From contig JBAYFP010000001.1 of the NCBI GenBank assembly GCA_041667145.1, positions 17,958 to 81,957 of the forward strand: 64,000 nt of DNA, written 5' to 3'. Shown here in pieces: positions 1 through 17,991 of the stretch; the stretch's first letter is position 1, and each line of letters opens with the position of its first letter. This DNA is from Minisyncoccota bacterium. GTDB taxonomy: Bacteria; Patescibacteriota; Minisyncoccia; Phycocordibacterales; UBA9973. A program made the translations under genes and the position numbers. The notes beneath the pieces were generated by a model. It had not been told where the DNA came from. It worked only from the letters and a program-made list of their open reading frames with translations, and ran no database searches.

Positions 1-158
1 AGGATGCATACCCTGTAGTCAGCTTTGCTGTACTACTGGGGTTCGAATAAGTTTGGTGAAAGGGTAGTAATTTACCCCATACCACTAACCACTATATCTC
101 TAGGAAGTTCACAATGTTCACATGTGCATAAGTGAACGTTGTCTTTTATTGAGAGAAA

Positions 159-440
159 TTGTATAGTTTTTGTATGGCATATCTATATGTATTTTTATTT
201 GCATTAATATTTATCACATCAGGTATCATTAATCTCAACCCTAAACTACGTGTTTGGGCTATAAACTATAACAATCAAATGAGAGGTATTAAAACCGAAA
301 TTACAGAAAAAACCCATAAAACATATTTTTACTTTGGTTTATTTTCATTAATAATTGGCATATGTATTTTAATATTTGCTATTTTATTTTCGCTAAAAAT
401 TTGTACTCTGATTACACCATTTTATTGGTGTCCTAAATAA
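159..440 (+). CDS. hypothetical small membrane protein
   Basis: 93-aa ORF with two hydrophobic segments; no recognisable motif. Confidence 0.25.
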   Translation: MYSFCMAYLYVFLFALIFITSGIINLNPKLRVWAINYNNQMRGIKTEITEKTHKTYFYFGLFSLIIGICILIFAILFSLKICTLITPFYWCPK

Positions 441-448
441 CATATCTG

Positions 449-476
449 GCTCCAGACTTGGGAGGATGTTCGAATG
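449..476 (+). repeat. 28-bp direct repeat copy A (GCTCCAGACTTGGGAGGATGTTCGAATG; SD GGGAGGA + ATG)
   Basis: near-identical copies at 1520-1547 and 2047-2074; followed by 6-codon ORF MSIIGE*. Confidence 0.8.
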
Positions 477-500
477 AGTATAATAGGGGAGTAGAAAGAG

Positions 501-535
501 ATAAAATAAAACCCCTCGACTTTCATCAAGGGGCC
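501..535 (-). terminator. rho-independent terminator downstream of pepE
   Basis: minus-strand hairpin CCCCT/AGGGG (512-516 with 529-533) followed by T-rich run (plus 501-511). Confidence 0.4.
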
Positions 536-613
536 GATAGTATATTCTATCCGATTACCTATACCTATAACCACTTTTGATTTTTATTACTATTTGGATG
601 TTTTTTCCGAAAA

Positions 614-1357
614 TTACAACATTTCTTTTTCCGGATAAGGCTTACCAGGTAGCCAAAGTGTTGGTTCTTTGGCATTTTTGAAAATAACCGCTTCTCCCTT
701 TCCCTTGAGGATGTATTCGTCATTTTCCACGACAATCCAACATCCCTCTGGCAAACCGATAACTGTTTGATTTTGGTTCCACATAAGAAATTGCTGGATT
801 CTCTCTCCACGTGTTTCCCCCATATGTTTTTCTACGAGGGCTCCAGAAACAAAATGTGGATTGATTTGGAAAGGAACTAAACCCAGAGCTTTGTCGCTTC
901 TTGGGAATATGGGGGCCATGTCATTTGTTGTCATCATGCTGGGACAAGCTACAACGGTACCAGCACTTGCGCTGATATATTTCCATTCGCAGGAACTGAC
1001 CTTTCCAAGAATTCGATGAATGAGCTCAAATTCATGAAGCCAGTACGCCAATGTCCATGTGTTGCCTCCGCCGATACAGATGGCTATGATCGAAGGATCA
1101 GAGAAACAGTCTCGAGCTGGATATGAAGTGATGTCTACGAGCTCATATCCTAGTTCGGCAAATGGTTCGGAAACCATTTTTGTATAATCTGTATAACCTG
1201 TATAACCTCCGTTTGCCTTTGCATATGGAATAAACACGATTTTATTTTTCCCTTGGATTGCGGGTCCCAAGAAATTCTTTAAGTCATCAAGACAATGACC
1301 CCAGAATTTACCATCTTGGTAGCGAGAACTACTGATTAGAAAAAGTTGTTTCATCAC
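614..1357 (-). CDS. pepE: dipeptidase E (peptidase S51, alpha-aspartyl dipeptidase)
   Basis: full-length resemblance to PepE, including GGGNT and TTNDMP-like motifs; AAGGAG SD 6 nt upstream of ATG. Confidence 0.75.
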   Translation of the reverse strand: MMKQLFLISSSRYQDGKFWGHCLDDLKNFLGPAIQGKNKIVFIPYAKANGGYTGYTDYTKMVSEPFAELGYELVDITSYPARDCFSDPSIIAICIGGGNTWTLAYWLHEFELIHRILGKVSSCEWKYISASAGTVVACPSMMTTNDMAPIFPRSDKALGLVPFQINPHFVSGALVEKHMGETRGERIQQFLMWNQNQTVIGLPEGCWIVVENDEYILKGKGEAVIFKNAKEPTLWLPGKPYPEKEML

Positions 1358-1519
1358 TATCTCCTTAATTGATTGTGAATTTTTTATTTATATTATTTGT
1401 AGCAACCAAATTTTTATAAAGAAACGTATTAGACAAAACGTAGAAAAACTTTTATCTCAAAGAATTGTATTTAATTACAAATTACCACATATTTAATTAT
1501 GAGTCAATTTTCCCACGAT

Positions 1520-1547
1520 GCTCCAGACTTGGGAGGATGTTCGAATG
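1520..1547 (+). repeat. 28-bp direct repeat copy B
   Basis: identical to copy A; followed by 8-codon ORF MEMIKMNN* and a hairpin. Confidence 0.8.
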
Positions 1548-1573
1548 GAAATGATAAAAATGAATAACTGAAA

Positions 1574-1604
1574 AAGCCTGTCCCCTCATAGAGAGGACAG
1601 GCTT
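1574..1604 (+). terminator. perfect 10-bp hairpin AAGCCTGTCC..GGACAGGCTT
   Basis: stem 1574-1583 with 1595-1604, 11-nt loop, followed by GTATTTG. Confidence 0.35.
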
Positions 1605-2046
1605 GTATTTGACAGTTCTATATCAACATATAATCGCCTTATTTAGAGATGTCAGCTCTGCATAGGCAATGGGAATCAGTCAAAATATATCTCGGAAGGA
1701 ATCTTAGAATGTGATTCCCTAGATCTTCCAGAACCATCCGAGACATAGCTCAGTTTAAAAAAATAGAATCTCCGACATTACTGAGCATCATTCGGGATAA
1801 TGAAGACTAATATGACTGCACTGGCGTATCTTAAAAGTTGTCTTCGAAACTCTTAAGATAAAAAACATAGGCCCTTACAGTTTAGATAATAAAGAACTAC
1901 AACAAATGTAGAAGGAGGCAAATATCACCTAACTCCTACATAATCAGGATAGCATATTCTGATTTAAAAGTCAAGCATTTTTAAAATACTTTTTTGAAAC
2001 ATAAATAATTCTTATAAAATAAGGCTACATTGAATTGCTCCAAACT

Positions 2047-2074
2047 TGGGAGGATGTTCGAATGGCTATACTTA
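2047..2074 (+). repeat. 28-bp direct repeat copy C (one substitution)
   Basis: GCTCCAAACTTGGGAGGATGTTCGAATG; followed by 10-codon ORF. Confidence 0.8.
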
Positions 2075-2206
2075 ACGAAAAAGAGCCCGTGTGATTATTT
2101 AATAATCCACAGAAATTATAAAAATATTTCTCTATAATAATAGTTAACTTAAAAGTTATTAACAACGAAAACTTGTTATTTTGCGTGATTTTGGTATATT
2201 GACAAT

Positions 2207-2806
2207 ATGGTCAAATTGGTCAATCGTACAGATTTTGTGTCTAAAATTAAGGCTAAAAAGATTAGTCTTTTTTCTGGACGTGAGATTCAAACATTATTTG
2301 GAGTTTCTAAGGTTGCTACCACTGGCATATTGCATCGTTATAGCAAGCAAGGTTTTATCATCCAAATTAAACGAGGTTTGTATGCGTTTCCTGATGCTTT
2401 ACCTCCTGAATTGTATCTTGCTAATAAACTCTATGATCCATCCTATATCTCAAGAGAGTTTGCTCTGTCATATCGTGGGATAATTCCTGAGATGGTATAT
2501 GAAATTACATCAGTGACAACTAAGGCTACACAAAAATTTAAAGCATTAGGTAAAATATATTCTTATCGTACGATTAAAAAATCTGCTTTTACTGGGTACA
2601 CAGTAGAGAAACAGCAAGGTTTTACTTTTCGCATAGCAGATGCAGAAAAAGCATTTGTTGATACTCTTTATTATCGCGTTATTTTTGGAAAAAAACCTAT
2701 AAGTCGTTTTAATAAAGAAAAAATAAATAAAAATAAAGCACTTAAATATGGTGAACTTTTTGATAATCCTAAACTTATTGGTATACTAAAGAGAACATTA
2801 TCATGA
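2207..2806 (+). CDS. AbiEi-family antitoxin / transcriptional regulator (type IV TA)
   Basis: N-terminal wHTH-like pattern ...LFGVSKVATTGILHRYSKQGFIIQIKRGLYAFPD typical of AbiEi; stop overlaps start of the next gene (ATGA). Confidence 0.55.
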   Translation: MVKLVNRTDFVSKIKAKKISLFSGREIQTLFGVSKVATTGILHRYSKQGFIIQIKRGLYAFPDALPPELYLANKLYDPSYISREFALSYRGIIPEMVYEITSVTTKATQKFKALGKIYSYRTIKKSAFTGYTVEKQQGFTFRIADAEKAFVDTLYYRVIFGKKPISRFNKEKINKNKALKYGELFDNPKLIGILKRTLS

Positions 2807-3567
2807 TTGGACCAGAACTATTAGAAAATATTGCACGACAGGAACAAACAAGCATATTCCCGAATATTGTTCGTGAATATGTGCAACATTTGTTTTTAAC
2901 CGAGTTATATCAACTTCCAGAATCGGAGAAATTGCTTTTTAAAGGTGGCACTGCTCTGCGTATAGTTTATAATTCGCCACGTTTTTCAGAAGATTTAGAC
3001 TTTTCTTTATTTGGAGTTCCTTCTAATGAAATTGGATCATTTGTTGATCGTTTATTTCTTGACGTTCTTGCAAAACTTGAAAGTACAGGTATTCACATAG
3101 AAATCGATAATAAATCTGCTCGGACATCTGGTGGATACTTTGGTCTAGCTACTCTCAATACAAATGGTTATCCTCCTATAAACATTGAAATCAATATATC
3201 ATCTAGAGGTGGAAATCATATTCAAGGAGAAATAGATAGTATCACAAATAATTTTGTACCAACGTATACGCTTTATCATTTACCACAAAAAGATATGGTT
3301 GATGAAAAAATATTTGGTGCATTGATTGATAGGAAAAAACCTCGTGATTATTATGATTTATATTTTTTGATGCGTAAGGGGATGTTGTCTCCAGAGCAAA
3401 AAAAACATCTTAGTGAAGTTGCAAAAGAAATCATTGATAGTTCTAAACAAGTTGATTTTCAAGGAGAACTTGGAATATTTTTACCTGCAAGCCAACAATC
3501 TATTATACGTGATTTTCCCCAAACATTAGAAAGAGAAATGCGTAATCAACTTTCCTTTAATCAATAA
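2803..3567 (+). CDS. AbiEii/AbiGii-family nucleotidyltransferase toxin (abortive infection)
   Basis: hallmark FKGGTALRIVYNSPRFSEDLDFS motif of the DUF1814/AbiEii NTase family; 4-bp overlap with upstream AbiEi. Confidence 0.75.
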   Translation: MIGPELLENIARQEQTSIFPNIVREYVQHLFLTELYQLPESEKLLFKGGTALRIVYNSPRFSEDLDFSLFGVPSNEIGSFVDRLFLDVLAKLESTGIHIEIDNKSARTSGGYFGLATLNTNGYPPINIEINISSRGGNHIQGEIDSITNNFVPTYTLYHLPQKDMVDEKIFGALIDRKKPRDYYDLYFLMRKGMLSPEQKKHLSEVAKEIIDSSKQVDFQGELGIFLPASQQSIIRDFPQTLEREMRNQLSFNQ

Positions 3568-3664
3568 AATTGTTATTTAATATAATATTCTATTACAGAA
3601 GATACGACTCTATTTTTTTAGTTATTAAATAATATGTAAATACTAAAAGTACTTTAATTAAAAT

Positions 3665-4948
3665 ATGGCTGATCCAATACGCACCAAAAAAGTTAGCATT
3701 TTTGCTGAAACTAAAGTAGTTGTAGAAGGCAAAGAATTACTTATAAAACTAAATACTCTAGTTGACGCAGATAAATTTCTTGCACTATCAGAAGAGGAGA
3801 AAAAAACCTTTTTACTCCAAGAGGCAAATAAAACATCACCAACACCAGTTAGTGGTATTTTTACCCTAAACTCATCTTTCAAGTATGTTAACCCAAGTTT
3901 TTTGAAAGAATTTAATTATGGAAATGTTTTAGTTGAATTAAATATTCCATATTGCTTACATATTCCAAATGGATATGAGCTAGAAGTTATGTTTTCAAAA
4001 GACACAAAACAAATGGCACTTATAATCCCTTCAAAAATTTGGACTCAAAAAGCACAAACCAACAAAGAACGATCTGATGAAACAGATTTTTTTGCTGATG
4101 ACAGAGTTCTCTATTTTCGCAAAAATGCAATAGTGGGTCCTAAAATGCCCTTAGACTTATCAGAGGGTTGGGAGCAAAATTATACAGGTTTTAATGTGAA
4201 TAGAATAAAAGATAGAAATGGAAGATTTCGCTTTACGCATTTATATATACAGTTTGATTTAACTGCTACTGAAAAAGAGTTAGAAAATAAGTTTAATTCT
4301 AATATAGTAATTGAAAAAGTAAAAGACATAACATTCCAAGTAGTTAATAAACTTATAGATGCCTATAGATTTACAACAAACGAAGAATATATCACTAGGC
4401 TTGGAGAAGTTAGTTTAACTATGATTTATTTCATTGATTTAAATCAAGGTATTTATTTATCACAAGTAAATACAGAGGTGGCACCAATGAATAGGTCTAA
4501 ACCAGAAATAGAAAAAATAGAAGAAATGTTAGATAAAGGAGATAGCCCAGATTTATATACTTTACTATTATTAGACGCACAGAACTCTTTCAATACCAAA
4601 AACTATCCTCTCGCTGTAGTCCAATCATTTCAAGCACTAGAAATCTTTATTGAAAATTTTTTAATTAAAGGATTTATTGATGTTGGTAAAACAGAAATAG
4701 AAGCTTCTGATTATATAATTCAAAGTAATAATTGGATGACTAAAACCAGATTAAAAGAGTTACTTAAAGAAATTAAAGGAAAATCTTTACAAGAAATAGA
4801 TCAATCTCTTTGGGATAAATGGTGCACCACCTACGATGTAGTAAGAACTGCTGTCATACACAAAGGTAAAGAACCTATTGTCTCTGAAATAAAAAATACT
4901 CTTGAAAATAATTTTCAAGTTATTGAGTTACTAAAATCATTGGTTTAA
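3665..4948 (+). CDS. hypothetical protein, possible C-terminal HEPN-like domain (Rx4H)
   Basis: 427 aa, no known catalytic motif except C-terminal VVRTAVIH (R-x4-H) preceded by helix-like ALEIFIENFL; sits in a defense island. Confidence 0.3.
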   Translation: MADPIRTKKVSIFAETKVVVEGKELLIKLNTLVDADKFLALSEEEKKTFLLQEANKTSPTPVSGIFTLNSSFKYVNPSFLKEFNYGNVLVELNIPYCLHIPNGYELEVMFSKDTKQMALIIPSKIWTQKAQTNKERSDETDFFADDRVLYFRKNAIVGPKMPLDLSEGWEQNYTGFNVNRIKDRNGRFRFTHLYIQFDLTATEKELENKFNSNIVIEKVKDITFQVVNKLIDAYRFTTNEEYITRLGEVSLTMIYFIDLNQGIYLSQVNTEVAPMNRSKPEIEKIEEMLDKGDSPDLYTLLLLDAQNSFNTKNYPLAVVQSFQALEIFIENFLIKGFIDVGKTEIEASDYIIQSNNWMTKTRLKELLKEIKGKSLQEIDQSLWDKWCTTYDVVRTAVIHKGKEPIVSEIKNTLENNFQVIELLKSLV

Positions 4949-5160
4949 GTAATTTTTATTTTCATAATAAAAACTATTCAGTTAATTGAATAATTCAAAT
5001 AATACTATTTTTTATTTTTTGTTATAATGATAATAATCAGCCGAAAGTTAAAAGCTGTTTTTAACTTACTTACCCTTCTTTAATATAGACCTAACAGTAA
5101 AAGTCGCTTCTAGCTTCTTGTTTTATTAGGTCCTAATATTATTAAATAAAATTAAAAAAT

Positions 5161-5562
5161 ATGTCTACAATAAAACAAAAAAAACTAGCAAAAGAAATAG
5201 TAAATAATATGAAAAGAACAAAACCCATTAATAAAGGAAAATTGGTGGAAATGGTTGGATATAGTAAAATAACAGCGGAAACAAAACCCGGAGAAATAAT
5301 TCATCAAAAAGGTGTTCAAGAAGAATTAAAAGAATTAGGTTTTGATGAAGATTCTGCAAAAAAGGTTGTTAGTGAAATAATGAATAATCCAAAAGCAGAA
5401 CCAGGTGCTAGATTAAAAGCAACGGACCAGGTATTTAAAGTTTTGGGTTTGTATTCTCCAAAAGAACCTGTTAATAAATTTGCTGGATGGAGCAGAGAAC
5501 AATTAATAGATCTAATCCTTTCAAAAATTACAAACAAATCAATTCATGTAGTTAGTCATTAG
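5161..5562 (+). CDS. phage terminase small subunit-like HTH protein
   Basis: N-terminus KQKKLAKEIV..GKLVEMVGYSKITAETKPGEIIHQKGVQEEL follows the Terminase_2 pattern (KQxxFxxEY..AGYSxKTA..). Confidence 0.35.
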   Translation: MSTIKQKKLAKEIVNNMKRTKPINKGKLVEMVGYSKITAETKPGEIIHQKGVQEELKELGFDEDSAKKVVSEIMNNPKAEPGARLKATDQVFKVLGLYSPKEPVNKFAGWSREQLIDLILSKITNKSIHVVSH

Positions 5563-5565
5563 AAG

Positions 5566-5973
5566 CTATTTTAAAAGACTTAGAAGAGGTAATAATGTTG
5601 CAGGAGAAATAATAAATATTGTATTTGATACAAACATAAGAATATTAATAAATACTAATAAAATCATAATCCATTTCTCTATTTCTCTTTCTTCATCAAT
5701 TTTAAAGATAGCTATTATTCCAAAAATAGCTGATATAAATATAGGCATTACATAAAAAATATAAAAAGGCACCCAATCTAAAAAATCTGGAACAGATAAA
5801 ATTTGAGATACAGATAAATGTTTATATATAAATTTAGGTACCCATTCATCTGGTATATATATCCCTAATAAATGTGATACAGAATATTCACCAACAAGCA
5901 AATAAAATATTGTAAAAATTACTGCCAGAATTGAAAATTTATTTATCTTTTTAAGCATGTGTTTATAAAACAA
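5566..5973 (-). CDS. hypothetical membrane protein
   Basis: 135 aa, 4 hydrophobic helices. Confidence 0.4.
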   Translation of the reverse strand: MFYKHMLKKINKFSILAVIFTIFYLLVGEYSVSHLLGIYIPDEWVPKFIYKHLSVSQILSVPDFLDWVPFYIFYVMPIFISAIFGIIAIFKIDEEREIEKWIMILLVFINILMFVSNTIFIISPATLLPLLSLLK

Positions 5974-7119
5974 TTACTGCTCATGTATAGCTGAATAATT
6001 AATAATAGAACCTAAGCTCTCTAATTCACCTACAGTTACAGATGTTGGTATACCAAACCAACAACCATTCTTTTTTAAGAAAGCTCCTCCACCAGAATTA
6101 CCATGTTCTATCTTAGCTGATGTCTTAATCATATATCCCTCAAATCCGCTTATAACTCCCTCTGTGGCAGTAATAGTGTCACCTCCTACTCCTGGATAAC
6201 CCAAAATTATGATTTCATCACCTAACTTAATACTACTAGATCGACAAAGGTTATGTGCAACTGTACTAACACTGTCTGGAAGAGTCTGTATTGGTTTAAG
6301 TAAGGCAATATCTAAAGTTGGGACGGTAGAAGCAACACTGGTGTCATACCAACGTACGGGAGATTTCTTTATATCATCTGTAACCCCCACACTGCATAAA
6401 ACTGAGTCTTTTACTACATGTAAGTTAGTTAAAATAAATTTATTTAACCCGAAAATAGTTCCACTCCCTACAACAAAATTTTCAGAAGATCCATCAGAAC
6501 AGATTATCCTAACTATATATTTTGCTAAGTCACTCGCAAGCAGTGAACTGTTTGCCTGAGTAGAAGTGATAATTTTTTGTGGTTTGTTTTTGAGTATTTC
6601 TACTTCTTGTCTTAAATTTTCAACTTCTAGATTTTTTAATTTTTGTGTTTCTTTATCTTTTTTTTCTTTATTAATCTTTTCAATTTCATCTACTAGATTT
6701 ATTTTTTCTTTATTCAATACTTCCTTAAATATTTTTATGTCTTCTTCTGTAAAATTCTTTACTAATTTATTTACTTCATCGTTTTTATCTTCTCTTATAA
6801 GTTTTTGTACCCTCAAAACAACAGGAAACATTCTTTTTTCAGCTTGATAATTTTGATAGTACTTAAAGCCAAAATAACTAGCACCACCAATAACAACCAT
6901 ACTCAAAAATAGTATAGGGATAAACCACTTGTATTTTAAATATTTTATTTTAATCCCTTTTGATTTCAAAAACCTGAATATAAAATACGAAGTCAAAATG
7001 AGAAACAGAAAGACAATAAAATAAATGATCTCATTAGTAGAAATACTACTTTTCTGATGTGTAGTTTCTAAAATCGTAGGTGAAACTTCTTCTTTTGGAA
7101 ATTCATAAGGTATTATCAT
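5974..7119 (-). CDS. membrane-anchored trypsin-like serine peptidase (S1 family) with coiled-coil
   Basis: N-terminal TM, KE-rich coiled coil, C-terminal domain with TNLHVV (His), DIALL (Asp), GNSGG (Ser) motifs. Confidence 0.6.
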   Translation of the reverse strand: MIIPYEFPKEEVSPTILETTHQKSSISTNEIIYFIVFLFLILTSYFIFRFLKSKGIKIKYLKYKWFIPILFLSMVVIGGASYFGFKYYQNYQAEKRMFPVVLRVQKLIREDKNDEVNKLVKNFTEEDIKIFKEVLNKEKINLVDEIEKINKEKKDKETQKLKNLEVENLRQEVEILKNKPQKIITSTQANSSLLASDLAKYIVRIICSDGSSENFVVGSGTIFGLNKFILTNLHVVKDSVLCSVGVTDDIKKSPVRWYDTSVASTVPTLDIALLKPIQTLPDSVSTVAHNLCRSSSIKLGDEIIILGYPGVGGDTITATEGVISGFEGYMIKTSAKIEHGNSGGGAFLKKNGCWFGIPTSVTVGELESLGSIINYSAIHEQ

Positions 7120-7123
7120 AATT

Positions 7124-7726
7124 TTAATTTTCTATTTCATAATAAAAGTCTTTCCCATTTTCTCGTTTACAAAATGATGAATAATAATTTCCATTATTAA
7201 TGAATAATATAGTTAATCCATCTGATTTCCAAAATAAACATAATAATTCCTCGTCATTTTTTATTGCTTCAAGAGAATATTTTTTTGAAAGCCCATACAA
7301 AAACTCATAAGAGTAATAAATAACTATTATTAATAGTGACAATATAGTAAACCATTGCTTTTCAAAAATTGAGGATAAAAGTAAAACAACAAACGAGATA
7401 TTGACCACATATTCTCTTGTGGGAGAATTTGGAGTTAATAAAAAGAAAGCTATTACTGAAAAAGGCAGAGTAAGAAGTAATATAAAATTACTAGTTACAA
7501 AACTATAAATTATAAGAGCTAATATCAGTACAAACGGGACTGCAGCACTAAGCATAGTTCTTGTTCTTAAATTTTTTGGCACCTTGTGTCCTGATATTAT
7601 CCAATTTAAAGCATTGCCTTTTGCTACGAGTAATTGACTTTCTTTTTTATTAAGTGATTCTTGTAATTGGTCAAAATTAGTGAAGGGAAAATTTTTTAAA
7701 TACTCAATTTTTTCAAAATTTTTCAT
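7124..7726 (-). CDS. hypothetical membrane protein
   Basis: 200 aa, several TM helices. Confidence 0.4.
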   Translation of the reverse strand: MKNFEKIEYLKNFPFTNFDQLQESLNKKESQLLVAKGNALNWIISGHKVPKNLRTRTMLSAAVPFVLILALIIYSFVTSNFILLLTLPFSVIAFFLLTPNSPTREYVVNISFVVLLLSSIFEKQWFTILSLLIIVIYYSYEFLYGLSKKYSLEAIKNDEELLCLFWKSDGLTILFINNGNYYSSFCKRENGKDFYYEIEN

Positions 7727-8203
7727 AAATTATTTACTAGAACGCAAAAAGCTCCCAGCCAGCTTGATGGTTTTTAAGCCACCCGTATCCGTTTCCAGAT
7801 ACGACACAGTGAAGTGTAAACTCTGACTAGGAGTTCTTTATTCTTCACTGTGTTTTTAACCATACCTTATAGCTTTTTAAGCAATAAGGGTTAGGTCCTG
7901 TTTATTTAATTGTATTTATATTGTAACAAAAGAGAATTTGATAGTCTAATGTTTTTTTATTTGACTTTTAAAGCTTAGGAGTTAGAATAGAAATGTAGAG
8001 TTTTTAAAAAATAAAATATATGGCTTCTATTATTCAGAGAGTTTTTGTTTTTCCGCGAGACCAATAATTTTGGATACGCGAGATAGTCTTTAAAAGATTA
8101 AACCTGAAAATTGAATGCTAAATTATTACTAAAAAGATAACTCTTTTTAGGGTGTATTTAGTGTTTAATTTTTAGCTTAGGTCTAAAAATGAACAAATAA
8201 ATT

Positions 8204-8226
8204 ACCGCCAGTCGCGGTTTTTTTAT
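8204..8226 (+). terminator. small hairpin + T7 run
   Basis: ACCGC..GCGGT stem followed by TTTTTTT. Confidence 0.3.
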
Positions 8227-8261
8227 TTGTCTAAGCACTTCTTATTATACCCTTAATTTTT

Positions 8262-8432
8262 ATGGAATTAAGTGAGAAGGCAAAAAAAGAATTAAAACAA
8301 ATTCTTCAAAAGGAAATAGGTTTCGAGAGTGTCTCAATGCTCACTGATCAAGAGATTAATCATCTTGGTGTTTTTTTTCTTTCTATTTTTACTGAATCAC
8401 TCAAAATGAAAAATCTTAAAAAAAGCATATAA
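8262..8432 (+). CDS. small ORF (56 aa) immediately upstream of the serine recombinase
   Basis: ATG 8262 to TAA 8430-8432, MELSEKAKKELKQILQKEIGFESVSMLTDQEINHLGVFFLSIFTESLKMKNLKKSI; position suggests a helper/RDF-like protein but no motif. Confidence 0.2.
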   Translation: MELSEKAKKELKQILQKEIGFESVSMLTDQEINHLGVFFLSIFTESLKMKNLKKSI

Positions 8433-8440
8433 TATAAATT

Positions 8441-10111
8441 ATGGATAAAGATTTTTATAAAAACTTAAAAGTAGCAGGTTATTCTAGAAAATCATCTGAA
8501 GCAGAAGATAGACAAGTACTTTCTATAGGCTCACAAAAAGATGAGATAGAGAAAATGAAAGAATTAAATGGAATTACAGACACAATTTATTACGAAGACA
8601 GTAAATCAGCAAAAACTCCAGGAATAAGAGATCATTTTTCAAACATGATACAGGATATAAAAAATGGTAAAAGAAATGCAATTGCATGTTGGAAACCCGA
8701 CAGACTTGCAAGAAATATGGATGAGGGTGGAGAGATTATAGATTTATTACAAAGAGGAATTATCAAATCAATAATTACGCCTAGTAAAACCTATACACCT
8801 TCTGAACCAAGCTGGTCATTACTTCTTGAATTTGGTATGGCTAATCAGTTTAGTCGTGATTTATCTGTAAACGTAAAAAGAGGTCAAAATAAAAAAGCTA
8901 GAATGGGTATTCCACATGGATTAGCAAAAATAGGTTTTTTGAATGACAAAACTGAAGAAAAAGGAAATAGAAAATGGTTGATTGACGAAAAAAGATTTCG
9001 AATAATAAAAGAGGTATTTAAGGTATATCTAACTGGTAATTATTCTGGAGGTCAAATGTATGATCTAGCAATAAGAGCCGGACTTACTACACCAAAACAC
9101 AAACATAGTGGTGGTAATTCAATAACCCATTCTAGAATATATACAATATTAAAAGATACAATATATGCTGGTTTTTTTCATCAAGGAGGAGAAAGATACG
9201 AGTTAGATAAAACCTTACCTAGAATTATTACCGAAGATGAACACGAGAAAGTACTTAGAATGCTTTCTGGTAAAAATATACCAAAAACACAAACTCATCA
9301 ATCGATGTATGGCGGTTTTATAATATCACCTCAAAATAAATCCATAGGTACAGACTGTAAATTTCAAATTATATGTGAGTGTAAATACAAATTTTCTTAT
9401 ATTAATAAAACTCATTGTCCAAAATGTGGAAAAGAAATAATTTTAATAAAAAATCCAAAATATCTTGAGTATGAATATTATTACAATGTTGCCTTGAAAA
9501 AGAAAAAGTGGTCAATTAAAAATATTTCACAAAGTAAAGTTACTGATTTTTTATTAGAATTTGCGGATAAGTTTTCAATGTCCCCCGCTCTTGCAAATTG
9601 GTCCAGACGCCATATCCATGAAATTCATGATTCTGAAGTTGAATCAAAATTAGTGGTTGTAGAAAGTCAAAAGGAAAGGATTGAACAACTAGAAACAAAA
9701 AAGGAAAGATACCGTAATATGTTAGCTGATGAGATGATAGAAAGAGAAGAATACGAACATGACACAAAGAAATTTAGCGCCGAAATAGAAAAAATTAAAC
9801 AAAATTCACAAAACCAAGTAAATTGGCTACAAGAAGCTGAAAAAATAATTGACTTGGGGTTAGAAATGAAAAAAATAATCAAAAATGGAACCACAATGGC
9901 AAAAAGAGAGATACTTTCTAAACTCGGTTCGAACCTAATCTGGGACGAGGAAGAACTCAATATTATCAACAAAAAACCAATCCAAGTGCTGATCGATGGA
10001 CTTCTTTGGGCCAAACAAAAAAATCCTAAGTTCGAACCTAGTTCTATAGTTGATACATCAAGTCAGAATGATGTTTTTGAGGACATTCGTCCTATCTTGC
10101 TCCGGGGGTAG
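8441..10111 (+). CDS. large serine recombinase (resolvase/invertase catalytic domain + recombinase domain + zinc ribbon)
   Basis: N-terminal AGYSRKSSEAEDRQ..SIGSQ catalytic-serine motif, DRLAR, C-terminal CPKCGKE zinc ribbon; 556 aa; 3' end overlaps the tRNA 3' end. Confidence 0.85.
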   Translation: MDKDFYKNLKVAGYSRKSSEAEDRQVLSIGSQKDEIEKMKELNGITDTIYYEDSKSAKTPGIRDHFSNMIQDIKNGKRNAIACWKPDRLARNMDEGGEIIDLLQRGIIKSIITPSKTYTPSEPSWSLLLEFGMANQFSRDLSVNVKRGQNKKARMGIPHGLAKIGFLNDKTEEKGNRKWLIDEKRFRIIKEVFKVYLTGNYSGGQMYDLAIRAGLTTPKHKHSGGNSITHSRIYTILKDTIYAGFFHQGGERYELDKTLPRIITEDEHEKVLRMLSGKNIPKTQTHQSMYGGFIISPQNKSIGTDCKFQIICECKYKFSYINKTHCPKCGKEIILIKNPKYLEYEYYYNVALKKKKWSIKNISQSKVTDFLLEFADKFSMSPALANWSRRHIHEIHDSEVESKLVVVESQKERIEQLETKKERYRNMLADEMIEREEYEHDTKKFSAEIEKIKQNSQNQVNWLQEAEKIIDLGLEMKKIIKNGTTMAKREILSKLGSNLIWDEEELNIINKKPIQVLIDGLLWAKQKNPKFEPSSIVDTSSQNDVFEDIRPILLRG

Positions 10112-10416
10112 GGATCGAACCTACGACCAATCGCTTACACTTTATCTTCTATTACTAGAAGTGTGGACTATATCATCTCCATGTTCATAACTTATGAATT
10201 TAGGAGCAAGGCGCTTCGCGCTCTAATAAATATTAGAGAGCTACTCCAAAATGGATAGTCTCTACACCTTCCTCAATTTTGTAATTGAGGCTTGGCTCGG
10301 GATTACCCTAAAAGGGCTTCCCCGAATTCACCTTGTTGTTCAACCTACCTTTTGATAGGAAGCTGCGTAATTTTTTATCGACACAGGCGACCGCTCTACC
10401 GCTGAGCTACCCCGGA
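10100..10416 (-). tRNA. tRNA (probably Asn-GUU) interrupted by a group I intron in the anticodon loop
   Basis: 5' exon TCCGGGGTAGCTCAGCGGTAGAGCGGTCGCCTGT (10383-10416) and 3' exon TAAGCGATTGGTCGTAGGTTCGATCCCTACCCCCGGAG (10100-10137) fold into a 72-nt cloverleaf with anticodon loop CUGUUAA; exact splice junction not resolvable by eye. Confidence 0.7.
10138..10382 (-). ncRNA. group I intron (IC3-like, Azoarcus/cyanobacterial tRNA intron type)
   Basis: contains AATCCCGAGCCAAGCC and GGAAGGTGTAGAGACTATCC, matching the conserved P7/P3 region (GAGCCAAGC, GAAGGUGUAGAGACUA) of Azoarcus tRNA-Ile and cyanobacterial tRNA-Leu introns. Confidence 0.7.
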
Positions 10417-16875: not shown

Positions 16876-17991
16876 ATGGTAAAAATACTAAAGAAACAGG
16901 GGAAAATAGTCAAAGTCAAAAAACAAAACAAAAAAACTGTTTCACTTAAAACTCGTAAAAAAGGCAAAAAAATAATTAAAATAGCGAAACTTAAAAGATT
17001 TTCGCATAATCCAATTATTGAGCCTAGCCCATATCCTTGGGAATCCAAAGCTACATTTAATCCAACTGCCTTTTTAGTGGATGGAAAAATTCATCTTATT
17101 TATCGAGCAATCGGTGATGATGATGTATCAGTTTTAGGATATGCTTCTAGTTTAGATGGTTCTAAAATAAAAGAAAGGTTTGCATATTCTATTTATAATA
17201 AATTTGGAAAATTTGTAAAATCTGGAGAGCCTATAAACTATATTTCAGGAGGGGGGTGGAATGGTGGTTGTGAAGATCCACGTGTTACTTTGATAGATAA
17301 TGTAGTTTATATGATTTATACAGCTTTTGATGGTTGGGGATCTTTACGAATGGCTTTAACTTCTATCAAACTAGATGATTTTAAAAAAAAGAAATGGAAC
17401 TGGGAAAAACCAATTTTAATTTCTCCTCCTGGTGAAATTCATAAAAATTGGGTTTTATTTCCAGAAAAAATAAATGGTAAATTTGCGATTTTGCATAGTA
17501 TCTCTCCTAAAGTTTTAATAGATTATGTGAAAAATTTTGATGAATTTGATGGTACTAAATTTATAAAAAGTTATCACAGTAGCACTCCTTCTTGGGGAAA
17601 TTCATGGGATAATATAGTGAGAGGCGTAGGCCCAACGCCAATAAAAATCAAAATAGGTTGGCTTGTTTTATATCATGCCATGGATAGAAACGATCCCAAC
17701 AGATATAAATTGGGGGCTATGATTTTAGACCTCAAGGATCCAACAAAAGTTTTGTATCGTTCTCCTTGTCCAATATTAGAGCCAGATGAAGATTATGAGA
17801 ATGAAGGATTTAAAGCTGGTGTCATATATTCCTGTGGTGCAGTAGTGAAAGACGGACAGCTTTTTGTATACTATGGTGGGGCTGATAGTGTAGTTTGTGT
17901 AGCTTCTATAAAACTATCAGATTTGATAAATAATCTTGTGAAAAATAAAAATATTAAATTAGAAAAAAATAAAAAATTTGAACTTAATTAA
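16876..17991 (+). CDS. glycoside hydrolase family 130 (beta-mannoside phosphorylase-like, DUF377)
   Basis: GCEDPRV, YTAFDG, YYGGAD hallmark motifs. Confidence 0.7.
   Translation: MVKILKKQGKIVKVKKQNKKTVSLKTRKKGKKIIKIAKLKRFSHNPIIEPSPYPWESKATFNPTAFLVDGKIHLIYRAIGDDDVSVLGYASSLDGSKIKERFAYSIYNKFGKFVKSGEPINYISGGGWNGGCEDPRVTLIDNVVYMIYTAFDGWGSLRMALTSIKLDDFKKKKWNWEKPILISPPGEIHKNWVLFPEKINGKFAILHSISPKVLIDYVKNFDEFDGTKFIKSYHSSTPSWGNSWDNIVRGVGPTPIKIKIGWLVLYHAMDRNDPNRYKLGAMILDLKDPTKVLYRSPCPILEPDEDYENEGFKAGVIYSCGAVVKDGQLFVYYGGADSVVCVASIKLSDLINNLVKNKNIKLEKNKKFELN

Follow-up and report, generated by a model that had tools for sequence, protein, structure and literature searches.

In staphylococci, the staphylococcal cassette chromosome elements (SCC, including SCCmec) are inserted at rlmH by CcrAB or CcrC, and tandem cassettes, recombinase-less ones acted on in trans included, are mobilised by CcrAB (PMC11470126). 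In the "suicidal" tyrosine integrases of the SSV type, which are described as exclusive to Archaea, the attachment (att) site lies within the int gene, the target is a tRNA gene, and the integrase gene is split and inactivated (PMC8371274). Here we describe a 28-bp repeat from a bacterium of the Candidate Phyla Radiation (CPR) which, as judged from sequence comparisons, is very probably the core GCTCC (positions 1-5) plus the element-side (P') arm of the att site of a large serine recombinase (LSR) that integrates at the 3' end of tRNA-Asn(GUU). The repeat lies in a stretch of 64,000 nt (hereafter the window) of a Minisyncoccota bacterium, covering positions 17,958 to 81,957 of the forward strand of contig JBAYFP010000001.1 in assembly GCA_041667145.1.

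Three + strand copies of the 28-mer, GCTCCA(G/A)ACTTGGGAGGATGTTCGAATG, were found at 449-476 (site A), 1520-1547 (site B) and 2037-2064 (site C). Dinucleotide-preserving shuffles gave a chance expectation of 0 matches, and in a three-way alignment of the neighbourhoods the identity among the sites begins and ends abruptly at the edges of the 28-mer. The repeat pointed out in a preliminary description of this DNA is thus real. That description had placed sites A and B correctly and site C 10 nt too high, at 2047-2074; its A-B spacing of 1071 bp is not in dispute, while the B-C spacing becomes 517 bp instead of 527 bp, with the B-C interval at 1548-2036. The short open reading frames (ORFs) that it had listed at the copies (MSIIGE, MEMIKMNN and MAILNEKEPV, each closed by a stop codon) read as it gave them. 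It was also right that the B-C interval lacks an ORF of 60 aa or more, none above 35 aa being found, and that the interval is GC-richer than its surroundings, if modestly (0.31-0.40 against about 0.25-0.30). Beyond A, B and C, no copy of the 28-mer was found in the 64-kb window even when 8 mismatches were allowed. A decayed fourth copy with an internal deletion was recognised by direct reading, and the profile of 71 sites described below gave a weak partial nhmmer match to it at 41-60 (E=3.4). Its position at about 27-60 suggests that the array probably extends past the left edge of the window, with more units leftward. At the repeats, ARAGORN and Rfam detected no tRNA, tmRNA or Rfam family, and a permissive Rfam search of positions 1-2300 returned only sub-threshold chance matches (AbsR25, SprD and others). 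The 28-mer is intergenic and holds the dyad TCCGAAC-N10-GTTCGAA, centred at position 14.5. The copies are as follows.

27 to 60, + strand: decayed fourth copy, gctgtactactggg and GTTCGAATAagttt flanking a 5-nt internal deletion
449 to 494, + strand: site A; 28-mer at 449-476, read as core GCTCC plus element-side (P') arm; putative orphaned tail frame ..LQTWEDVRMSIIGE, with its stop codon at 492-494
1520 to 1571, + strand: site B; 28-mer at 1520-1547, identical to that of A; tail frame ..LQTWEDVRMEMIKMNN, then a stop codon
2037 to 2094, + strand: site C; 28-mer at 2037-2064, with one mismatch to A and B; tail frame LLQTWEDVRMAILNEKEPV, then a stop codon

The only protein family that recurs near the sites is the large serine recombinase. 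In the window, the LSR gene and the tRNA gene that it adjoins lie to the right of the three sites.

8441 to 10111, + strand: LSR gene, 556 aa; Pfam Resolvase (PF00239, 2.6e-16, residues 11-156) and Recombinase (PF07508, 8.5e-08)
10099 to 10104, + strand: putative attR core GCTCCG, where the LSR 3' end (P arm, 10079-10098) meets the tRNA-Asn 3' end (B' arm)
10099 to 10416, - strand: tRNA-Asn(GUU), the proposed integration target; exon 1 at 10416-10383, intron at 10382-10138, exon 2 at 10137-10099

The LSR carries the nucleophile motif YSRKSS (G-Y-S-R-K-S-S at residues 13-19), and its closest relative with a solved structure is the SPbeta LSR YokA/SprA (E=3.5e-8), to which phmmer aligns residues 7-474. 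The gene ends with the codons CTC CGG GGG TAG, which run across the att core and place the stop codon within the tRNA. The same junction, (T/A)TG CTC CGN GGG TAG followed by GGATCGAACC, was found in the window, in loci L010, L012 and L018 of other contigs (such loci are given L numbers throughout) and in the contexts of the homologues P0003, P0005 and P0012 (57-78% identity), and ARAGORN placed a tRNA-Asn at the same junction in L005, L009, L012 and L018. Where an LSR is present, its gene is always on the strand of the sites and to their right, and the tRNA-Asn is always on the opposite strand. Locus L045 shows a clean single insertion, with uvrA-uvrC, attL, 8.3 kb, the LSR and tRNA-Asn in this order. 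The present recombinase-bearing element most likely has its attL in site C, since the layout of the window matches that of L045 (attL, 8.3 kb, LSR, tRNA-Asn). The spliced exons of the window tRNA-Asn are identical at 73/73 positions to the intron-less tRNA-Asn of L045. The intron itself is a group I intron (Rfam Intron_gpI, 66.7 bits) of 245 nt, inserted between the second and third anticodon bases; the same intron is also present in L010 and L020 and absent from L005, L009, L012, L018 and L045.

The position of the crossover could be read from a pair of occupied and empty sites in the Paceibacterota. The contig Ga0265292_1000033 (L041, L003 and L010) is collinear with the related L020 except for 12.3 kb that are absent from L020. 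The empty site in L020 reads gttttgGCTCCG joined to TGGGTAGGGATCGAACC, the right side being the tRNA 3' end. At the left end of the insert, the occupied contig reads gttttgGCTCCG joined to AACTTGGGAGGATGTTCGAATA; at the right end, just past the LSR that closes the insert, it reads aaaacattGCTCCG joined to TGGGTAGGG. The core common to the empty and occupied junctions is GCTCCG, and the flanks are exchanged as expected for hybrid attL/attR, which shows the 28-mer to be attL, composed of the common core and the element-side arm. In addition, position 6 is A in sites A-C and G at attR, and in L026 unrelated DNA directly follows the GCTCC of this same LSR end; together these confine the crossover to GCTCC. 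The repeat is not a copy of the tRNA 3' end, as the two share only GCTCC(G): AACTTGGGAGGATGTTCGAATG, the remainder of the 28-mer, does not match the tRNA sequence TGGGTAGGGATCGAACC. By eye, the P and P' arms match at about 10 of 20 positions, and the B arms are unconserved between genomes.

A second line of evidence comes from the C-termini of the recombinases. Among the 120 closest LSR homologues, 79, those of the integrated form, stop two residues past a conserved [LM]L, 11 continue into the tRNA T-arm (GSNLRPI), eight carry tails of the pattern ..LL[RQ]TW[ED][DN]VR[KTQ]x[IV].., and 22 have other endings. The tail pattern TW[ED][DN]VR is the exact translation of the 28-mer in the LSR frame, and five tail-bearing LSR genes (L054, L055, L057, L058 and L059) hold the 28-mer in frame with 4-8 mismatches. 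These tail-bearing genes are located in elements with RepO-like replication genes, or in comM islands held by a second LSR, a setting which indicates that their own site is unrecombined. Composite elements with two LSRs were seen in L054 (2528-11722) and L055 (5827-11620), where one LSR sits in comM (Mg-chelatase-like) and the other is of the tRNA-Asn type, with its att site intact within the gene.

The distribution of the site in other genomes was followed by several scans. An exact 20-mer scan, in which one genome per species was taken, gave six true matches, all in CPR bacteria (Paceibacterota, Saccharibacteria and unclassified members); an archaeal match, L007, covers only the 20-mer inside a coding region and was set aside as chance. 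A metagenome scan added 35 further loci. In the viral collection there were 0 exact 20-mer matches, and a wobble-tolerant pattern gave one unrelated high-GC match. The counts that follow are from fuzzy matching over 38 non-redundant loci, and the conservation profile is from 71 unique sites. The 38 loci contain 84 sites, against 0.05 expected from shuffles; 18 of them have at least two sites, and mixed orientation was seen in none. Copies per locus reach eight in 8 kb (L004), about nine (L008), six in 4 kb (L021) and five to seven (L014). Neighbouring sites lie a median of about 750 bp apart, delimiting single-gene units of 0.3-1.7 kb in which the main ORF runs opposite to the site in about 40 of 46 intervals. 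GC content varies widely between neighbouring intervals (0.24 to 0.47), and successive intervals hold unrelated cargo, including Peptidase_S51 (a further one, in L003), SRPBCC, PIN-PhoH, nucleotidyltransferases, HIT and the YafQ toxin, as well as NUDIX, P-loop kinase, histidine phosphatase, PAP2, TspO and many unknowns. The units have promoters of their own, with -35 boxes within about 14 nt of the next core, and are flanked by terminator hairpins. One toxin-antitoxin cassette occurs in three different neighbourhoods (L016, L018 and L034), its homology stopping at the site edge. Array sites are often nearly perfect (0-2 mismatches), and degenerate or truncated sites are also common.

Across the 71 sites, the left edge of conservation is sharp at G1. 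Rightward, conservation passes the 28-mer: T33 is present in 69 of 71 sites and is followed by T36, A39 and then the A-tract of minus-strand terminators. The near-invariant T33 corresponds to the second base of the Ile/Val codon that real tails have at that place. The variable positions 7, 10, 16, 28 and 34 have a codon periodicity that is suggestive and not significant alone (rough p ~0.3), and it counts only as support for reading the site as a recombinase tail. Position 28 is A in 34 sites, G in 29, T in six and C in two, so most copies have no ATG. To the left of the core, a motif common to the 71 sites was sought and not found; what emerged were promoter (-35) and hairpin classes. A second motif that recurs, CTAGGAAGTTCACAATGT(G/T)CAC with GTTCACA-like repeats, was found on the + strand of the window at 99-140 and in L003 (~3600), L004, L010 (~3011), L016 (~799), L022 and L029. 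It keeps a constant orientation with the sites, abutting a site on the left or lying 30-60 nt to the right of one, and its window copy is followed by a + strand promoter and a membrane ORF of 88 aa (174-440). It was considered as the missing left arm, given that it abuts a site in L004 and L016 and contains the dyad AAGTTC-N9-GAACTT, and was rejected because it is not at the mapped attR/attP junctions. A second site type, GCTCCGAACTTGGAAGGTCGTTCAGACTC, whose tail frame is ..TWKVVQT.., lies directly beside a standard site in L032 (~1184-1212) and recurs in L026 (~8100-8160); it probably represents the arm belonging to a sister lineage of LSRs. In L010 (3045-3072) and L020 (1386-1413), an inverted site is present on the 5' side of tRNA-Asn, and in L018 (1-2157) the tRNA is inverted relative to flanking genes common with L041. 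The inverted site and the inverted tRNA suggest site-mediated inversions around the tRNA.

From these observations the following course of events may be proposed. In the unintegrated element, the crossover point would lie inside the last codons of the LSR gene, so that the 28-mer and the next 15-30 nt would encode a C-terminal tail (...LL-R/Q-T-W-E/D-D/N-V-R-x-x-I..., then a stop codon). Integration would join the LSR gene to the tRNA, the protein then ending ...LLRG at the TAG within the tRNA, and the tail-coding arm would stay at the far junction (attL). Sites B and A would bound two further units stacked farther from the tRNA, one ncRNA-like and one with pepE. The left arms are unconserved in attB, attL and attR, suggesting that the enzyme relies on the right-hand arms (P' and the tRNA arm); such reliance would make recombination of a donor site with attR possible, and units could thereby be added beside the tRNA. 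The junction nearest the tRNA may thus be where new units come in, by donor site x attR, older ones being pushed outward, and units without an LSR may have moved in trans or may be the trimmed remains of full elements. The scheme predicts an empty site in which the left chromosomal flank is joined to GCTCCGGGGGTAGGGATCGAACC, and an element circle with the junction ..cgtcctatcttGCTCCA(A/G)ACTTGGGAGGATG.., connecting the LSR 3' end to site C, B or A. If single cassettes move, circles of the form ..ttttcccacgatGCTCC...GAATGagtataatagg (B-left to A-right) and ..ctacattgaattGCTCC...GAATGgaaatgataa (C-left to B-right) would be expected. More tentatively, and with doubt outweighing confidence, we suggest that the locus is a CPR gene-capture platform, integron-like and run by the LSR at tRNA-Asn, in which single-gene cassettes are inserted, stacked and reshuffled, and in which the tail swap from ..TWEDVR.. 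to RG and a stop codon could switch activity, stability or directionality. In such a platform each compact cassette would have its own promoter and be insulated by terminators, and of the att site it would hold no more than the conserved half on the element side.

Other explanations of the repeat differ in how well they account for these data. The preliminary description had stressed a Shine-Dalgarno-like GGGAGGA; each window copy does have one, with an ATG 7 nt further on and a short ORF after it. It had offered a translation start, a leader-peptide/attenuator cassette or a mobile translation-initiation cassette; in readings of this kind, mini-ORFs of 6-10 codons would regulate or tag the neighbours. 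This family of explanations is extremely improbable, since the ATG is absent from most of the 71 sites with the variation at position 28, about 40 of 46 cassette genes are on the opposite strand, and the site lies between a minus-strand terminator and a promoter. The hairpin that it had noted after copy B is really a minus-strand intrinsic terminator (1604-1574, with its T-run on the minus strand), as is the one after copy A (535-510). Moreover, the same bases are in-frame LSR codons (W-E-D-V-R-M/I). GGGAGGA and ATG are accounted for by the 28-mer, which forms the 3' end of the recombinase gene and is in frame with it; as read in this frame, they are recombinase codons (W-E-D and M/I) and not a ribosome-binding site, and the mini-ORFs are the final residues and stop codons of orphaned recombinase tails. 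The same description had also considered att-site scars from serial integrations next to the Abi island, and this was essentially right: the copies appear to be attL-type junctions at tRNA-Asn, and AbiE is cargo of the innermost recombinase-bearing element. Its further thought, that the 28-mer might be the duplicated end of a known gene and hence a plain att site, came close in that the repeat behaves as an att site, but only GCTCC(G) is common to the tRNA end and the remainder is element DNA. The search of other genomes that it had proposed gave further copies at many CPR loci, whose flanks include unrelated cargo, LSR and tRNA-Asn; the suspected identity with a tRNA or tmRNA 3' end was not borne out by ARAGORN, Rfam and junction comparison, which gave no match beyond GCTCC(G). 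A CPR dif site, that is, a 28-bp Xer target of 11 + 6 + 11 bp with extra copies from insertions of integrative mobile elements exploiting Xer (IMEX) or dif modules, would agree with the length of exactly 28 bp, the central dyad, the intergenic location and the one exact match per genome in the first scan. However, fuzzy matching shows up to about nine same-orientation copies per 8 kb, the crossover maps from the occupied and empty junctions to the left edge GCTCC and not to the centre, and the site occurs within LSR genes. In addition, GC skew is positive for 50 kb rightward of the locus, which is not a terminus pattern, and no annotated context contains a tyrosine recombinase. The arrays and the left-edge crossover led us to drop the dif/Xer idea, to which we assign almost no probability. 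An operator or promoter element, in which a dimeric regulator binds the 28-mer upstream of the minus-strand -35 box and the clustering marks a co-regulated accessory island, is very unlikely. It is true that sites often have a strong minus-strand promoter (TTGACA-17-TAnnnT) beginning 1-12 nt away, that the 28-mer is partly symmetrical about a dyad, and that its orientation to the genes is constant; yet the spacing between site and -35 box varies, many sites are followed instead by a terminator hairpin, and the homology of related cassettes breaks exactly at the site edge. Such an element would also leave the empty and occupied junctions, the linkage to the LSR and tRNA-Asn and the in-frame LSR copy unexplained.

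The att-site reading itself has points against it. Its direct support covers the identity of the site, the target, the crossover position and the in-frame tail, and all of it is comparative, no recombination event having been observed. Pfam found the zinc ribbon PF13408 (Zn_ribbon_recom) in the relatives L010 and L018 and not in the window LSR, and the P and B arms have little conservation or dyad symmetry, which is unusual for textbook serine-integrase sites. To our knowledge, canonical LSRs do not recombine attP with attR, nor P'-type sites with one another, and these limits leave the arrays of small LSR-less cassettes unexplained by the standard mechanism. The outer end of the island lies unseen to the left of the window, and the densest arrays, L004 and L008, were covered over 8 kb, so that their link to tRNA-Asn and an LSR is a presumed one. 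A variant that keeps the identity of the site takes the A-B and B-C intervals as decayed former full LSR elements, trapped by tandem insertions, trimmed by deletion and now immobile. We hold this variant to be possible, if on the doubtful side. LSR fragments do occur in arrays or by the tRNA (a C-terminal 149 aa in L012; in L014 a fragment and then another site), degenerate and truncated sites are common, and canonical LSR chemistry gives no excision route for an inner cassette. Against this, the cassettes are compact and regular (median ~750 bp, own promoters, end terminators, one orientation), many array sites have only 0-2 mismatches, and the toxin-antitoxin cassette found in L016, L018 and L034 keeps homology ending at the site.

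The two intervals between the sites, and the element to their right, contain the following features.

477 to 1519, - strand: cassette 1, 1043 bp; terminator at 535-510, pepE (Peptidase_S51) at 1354-617, stop codon at 616-614
1548 to 2036, - strand: cassette 2, 489 bp; TG-extended promoter TTGACT-17-TATCCT at 1974-1946, terminator at 1604-1574
2065 to 8440, no strand assigned: cargo of the LSR element; AbiEi at 2207-2806, AbiEii at 2803-3567, a 427-aa protein, a trypsin-like protease at 5974-7119 (- strand) and membrane proteins
7766 to 7897, - strand: LOOT RNA (RF03000), 77 bits, within the LSR element; precedes the small ORF and the LSR by some hundreds of nt
8262 to 8432, + strand: 56-aa ORF directly upstream of the LSR

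In cassette 1, pepE (Pfam Peptidase_S51, E=8e-39) has a GC content of 0.43-0.47 compared with about 0.30 in its flanks, and the AT-rich region upstream of it contains a weak TTGACT-17-TAATTT at 1507-1479. Its closest homologues (70-72% identity) are ordinary chromosomal genes without sites, and the homology is confined to the coding sequence; pepE as a travelling cassette was therefore rejected. The predicted transcript of cassette 2, of about 370 nt (within 1570-1974, - strand), folds with a minimum free energy of -120.4, compared with -86.7 +/- 5.4 in shuffles (z = -6.2). It matches no Rfam family and its ORFs are all of 35 aa or less, and by its sequence it is a candidate for a non-coding RNA or a decayed gene. 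The terminators at 535-510 and 1604-1574, with T-runs on the minus strand, close pepE and the B-C transcript. Minus-strand promoters and terminators make each interval a minus-strand expression unit, not one placed downstream of the mini-ORFs.

As delimited by its junctions, the island in the window spans at least 449 to 10104, and its innermost unit, 2037-10104, is a complete 8-kb LSR element that includes AbiE. The small ORF upstream of the LSR is kept in position, with a length of 54-67 aa, in every LSR context examined (L045, L048, L050, L054, L055, L057 and L059); it has no Pfam match, and its conserved place makes it a candidate directionality factor or regulator. The linkage of LOOT to an LSR recurs in L026 (LOOT at 3090-3216), and this orphan RNA family may have a role in mobile elements. 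In L050/L051 (1-11680), an LSR of 57% identity lies beside tRNA-Asn at the end of a phage-like region, which encodes a small terminase subunit and a protein of 1578 aa, suggesting that the LSR family also serves CPR prophages. In an independent assembly of the same sample (SRR6484324), the contigs L001 (equal to window 99-1544) and L044 (equal to 1516-10126) break within site B and within the tRNA-Asn T-arm. If the k of this assembly was 31, a 28-nt repeat alone would not cause the breaks, and they may reflect population variants at att junctions.

The genomes of CPR bacteria (Patescibacteria) are tiny, and little is known of the ways in which accessory and defence genes reach them. These bacteria appear to have a fixed place of insertion at the 3' end of tRNA-Asn, with a 28-33 bp marker that delimits the insertions, and through this marker the cassettes can be counted across thousands of metagenome-assembled genomes. 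The cargo (AbiE, YafQ toxin, PIN-PhoH, nucleotidyltransferases, NUDIX, HIT, TspO and PepE-like peptidases) looks like a flexible accessory pool. If the small units move singly, the locus would be a cassette platform built on serine-recombinase chemistry and integron-like in function. With the att site placed in the 3' end of its own recombinase gene, the element may have a simple means of sensing its integration state, and the natural pairs of att site and LSR might be of use in genome engineering. Annotators should avoid labelling such repeats as ribosome-binding sites or small ORFs. In the literature, our searches on CPR cassette arrays, the function of LOOT RNA and serine integrases that have an internal attP turned up nothing specific, and no paper on the present system was found. 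Both the enzyme and the attL/attR logic are already known for serine integrases, and the att-site identity of the 28-mer is well supported by the comparisons; integron-like dynamics and a regulatory role of the tail swap are conceivable.

Among known systems, the serine integrases (SPbeta SprA/YokA, A118, phiC31 and Bxb1) have the Resolvase and Recombinase domains and the YSRKSS motif in common with the LSR described here, whose best solved relative is SPbeta YokA. They too integrate conservatively to give hybrid attL/attR, with the integrase gene beside the att site, and the element arm resembles the target arm, here shifted outward by 4 nt (AACT followed by TGGGAGGAT.. versus TGGGTAGGGAT..). 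This shift recalls a difference in motif spacing between attP and attB half-sites that was reportedly described by Rutherford et al. in 2013. Unlike in these integrases, each site at the CPR loci has one conserved arm, the crossover lies inside the last codons of the integrase gene, and the sites form long direct arrays. The target also differs, being a tRNA 3' end, a target common among tyrosine integrases and seldom used by serine ones. Integrons (IntI, attI, attC) are comparable in their one-orientation arrays of compact, unrelated single-gene cassettes and in a recombinase gene that is transcribed away from them. However, the site here is a simple one of 28-33 bp without a folded attC, the cassettes have their own promoters and terminators where those of integrons are mostly promoterless, and the platform is a tRNA gene; no IntI-type tyrosine recombinase (PF00589) was found in any annotated context. 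The SCC elements are alike in architecture only: they too have one conserved gene whose 3' end receives LSR-driven insertions, tandem units between direct att repeats, LSR-less units and a cargo rich in defence and accessory genes. They differ in size (20-70 kb, compared with single-gene units of 0.3-1.7 kb), in target (a tRNA gene here), in having a CcrA/CcrB pair instead of one LSR, and in lineage; mobilisation in trans is known for SCC, whereas for the CPR units it can only be presumed. The SSV-type integrases resemble the CPR recombinase in that the att site is within the recombinase ORF, integration alters the gene and the target is a tRNA gene. In contrast to the splitting of the archaeal int gene, the bacterial serine recombinase would exchange its last 12-35 residues for two (RG) and a stop codon.

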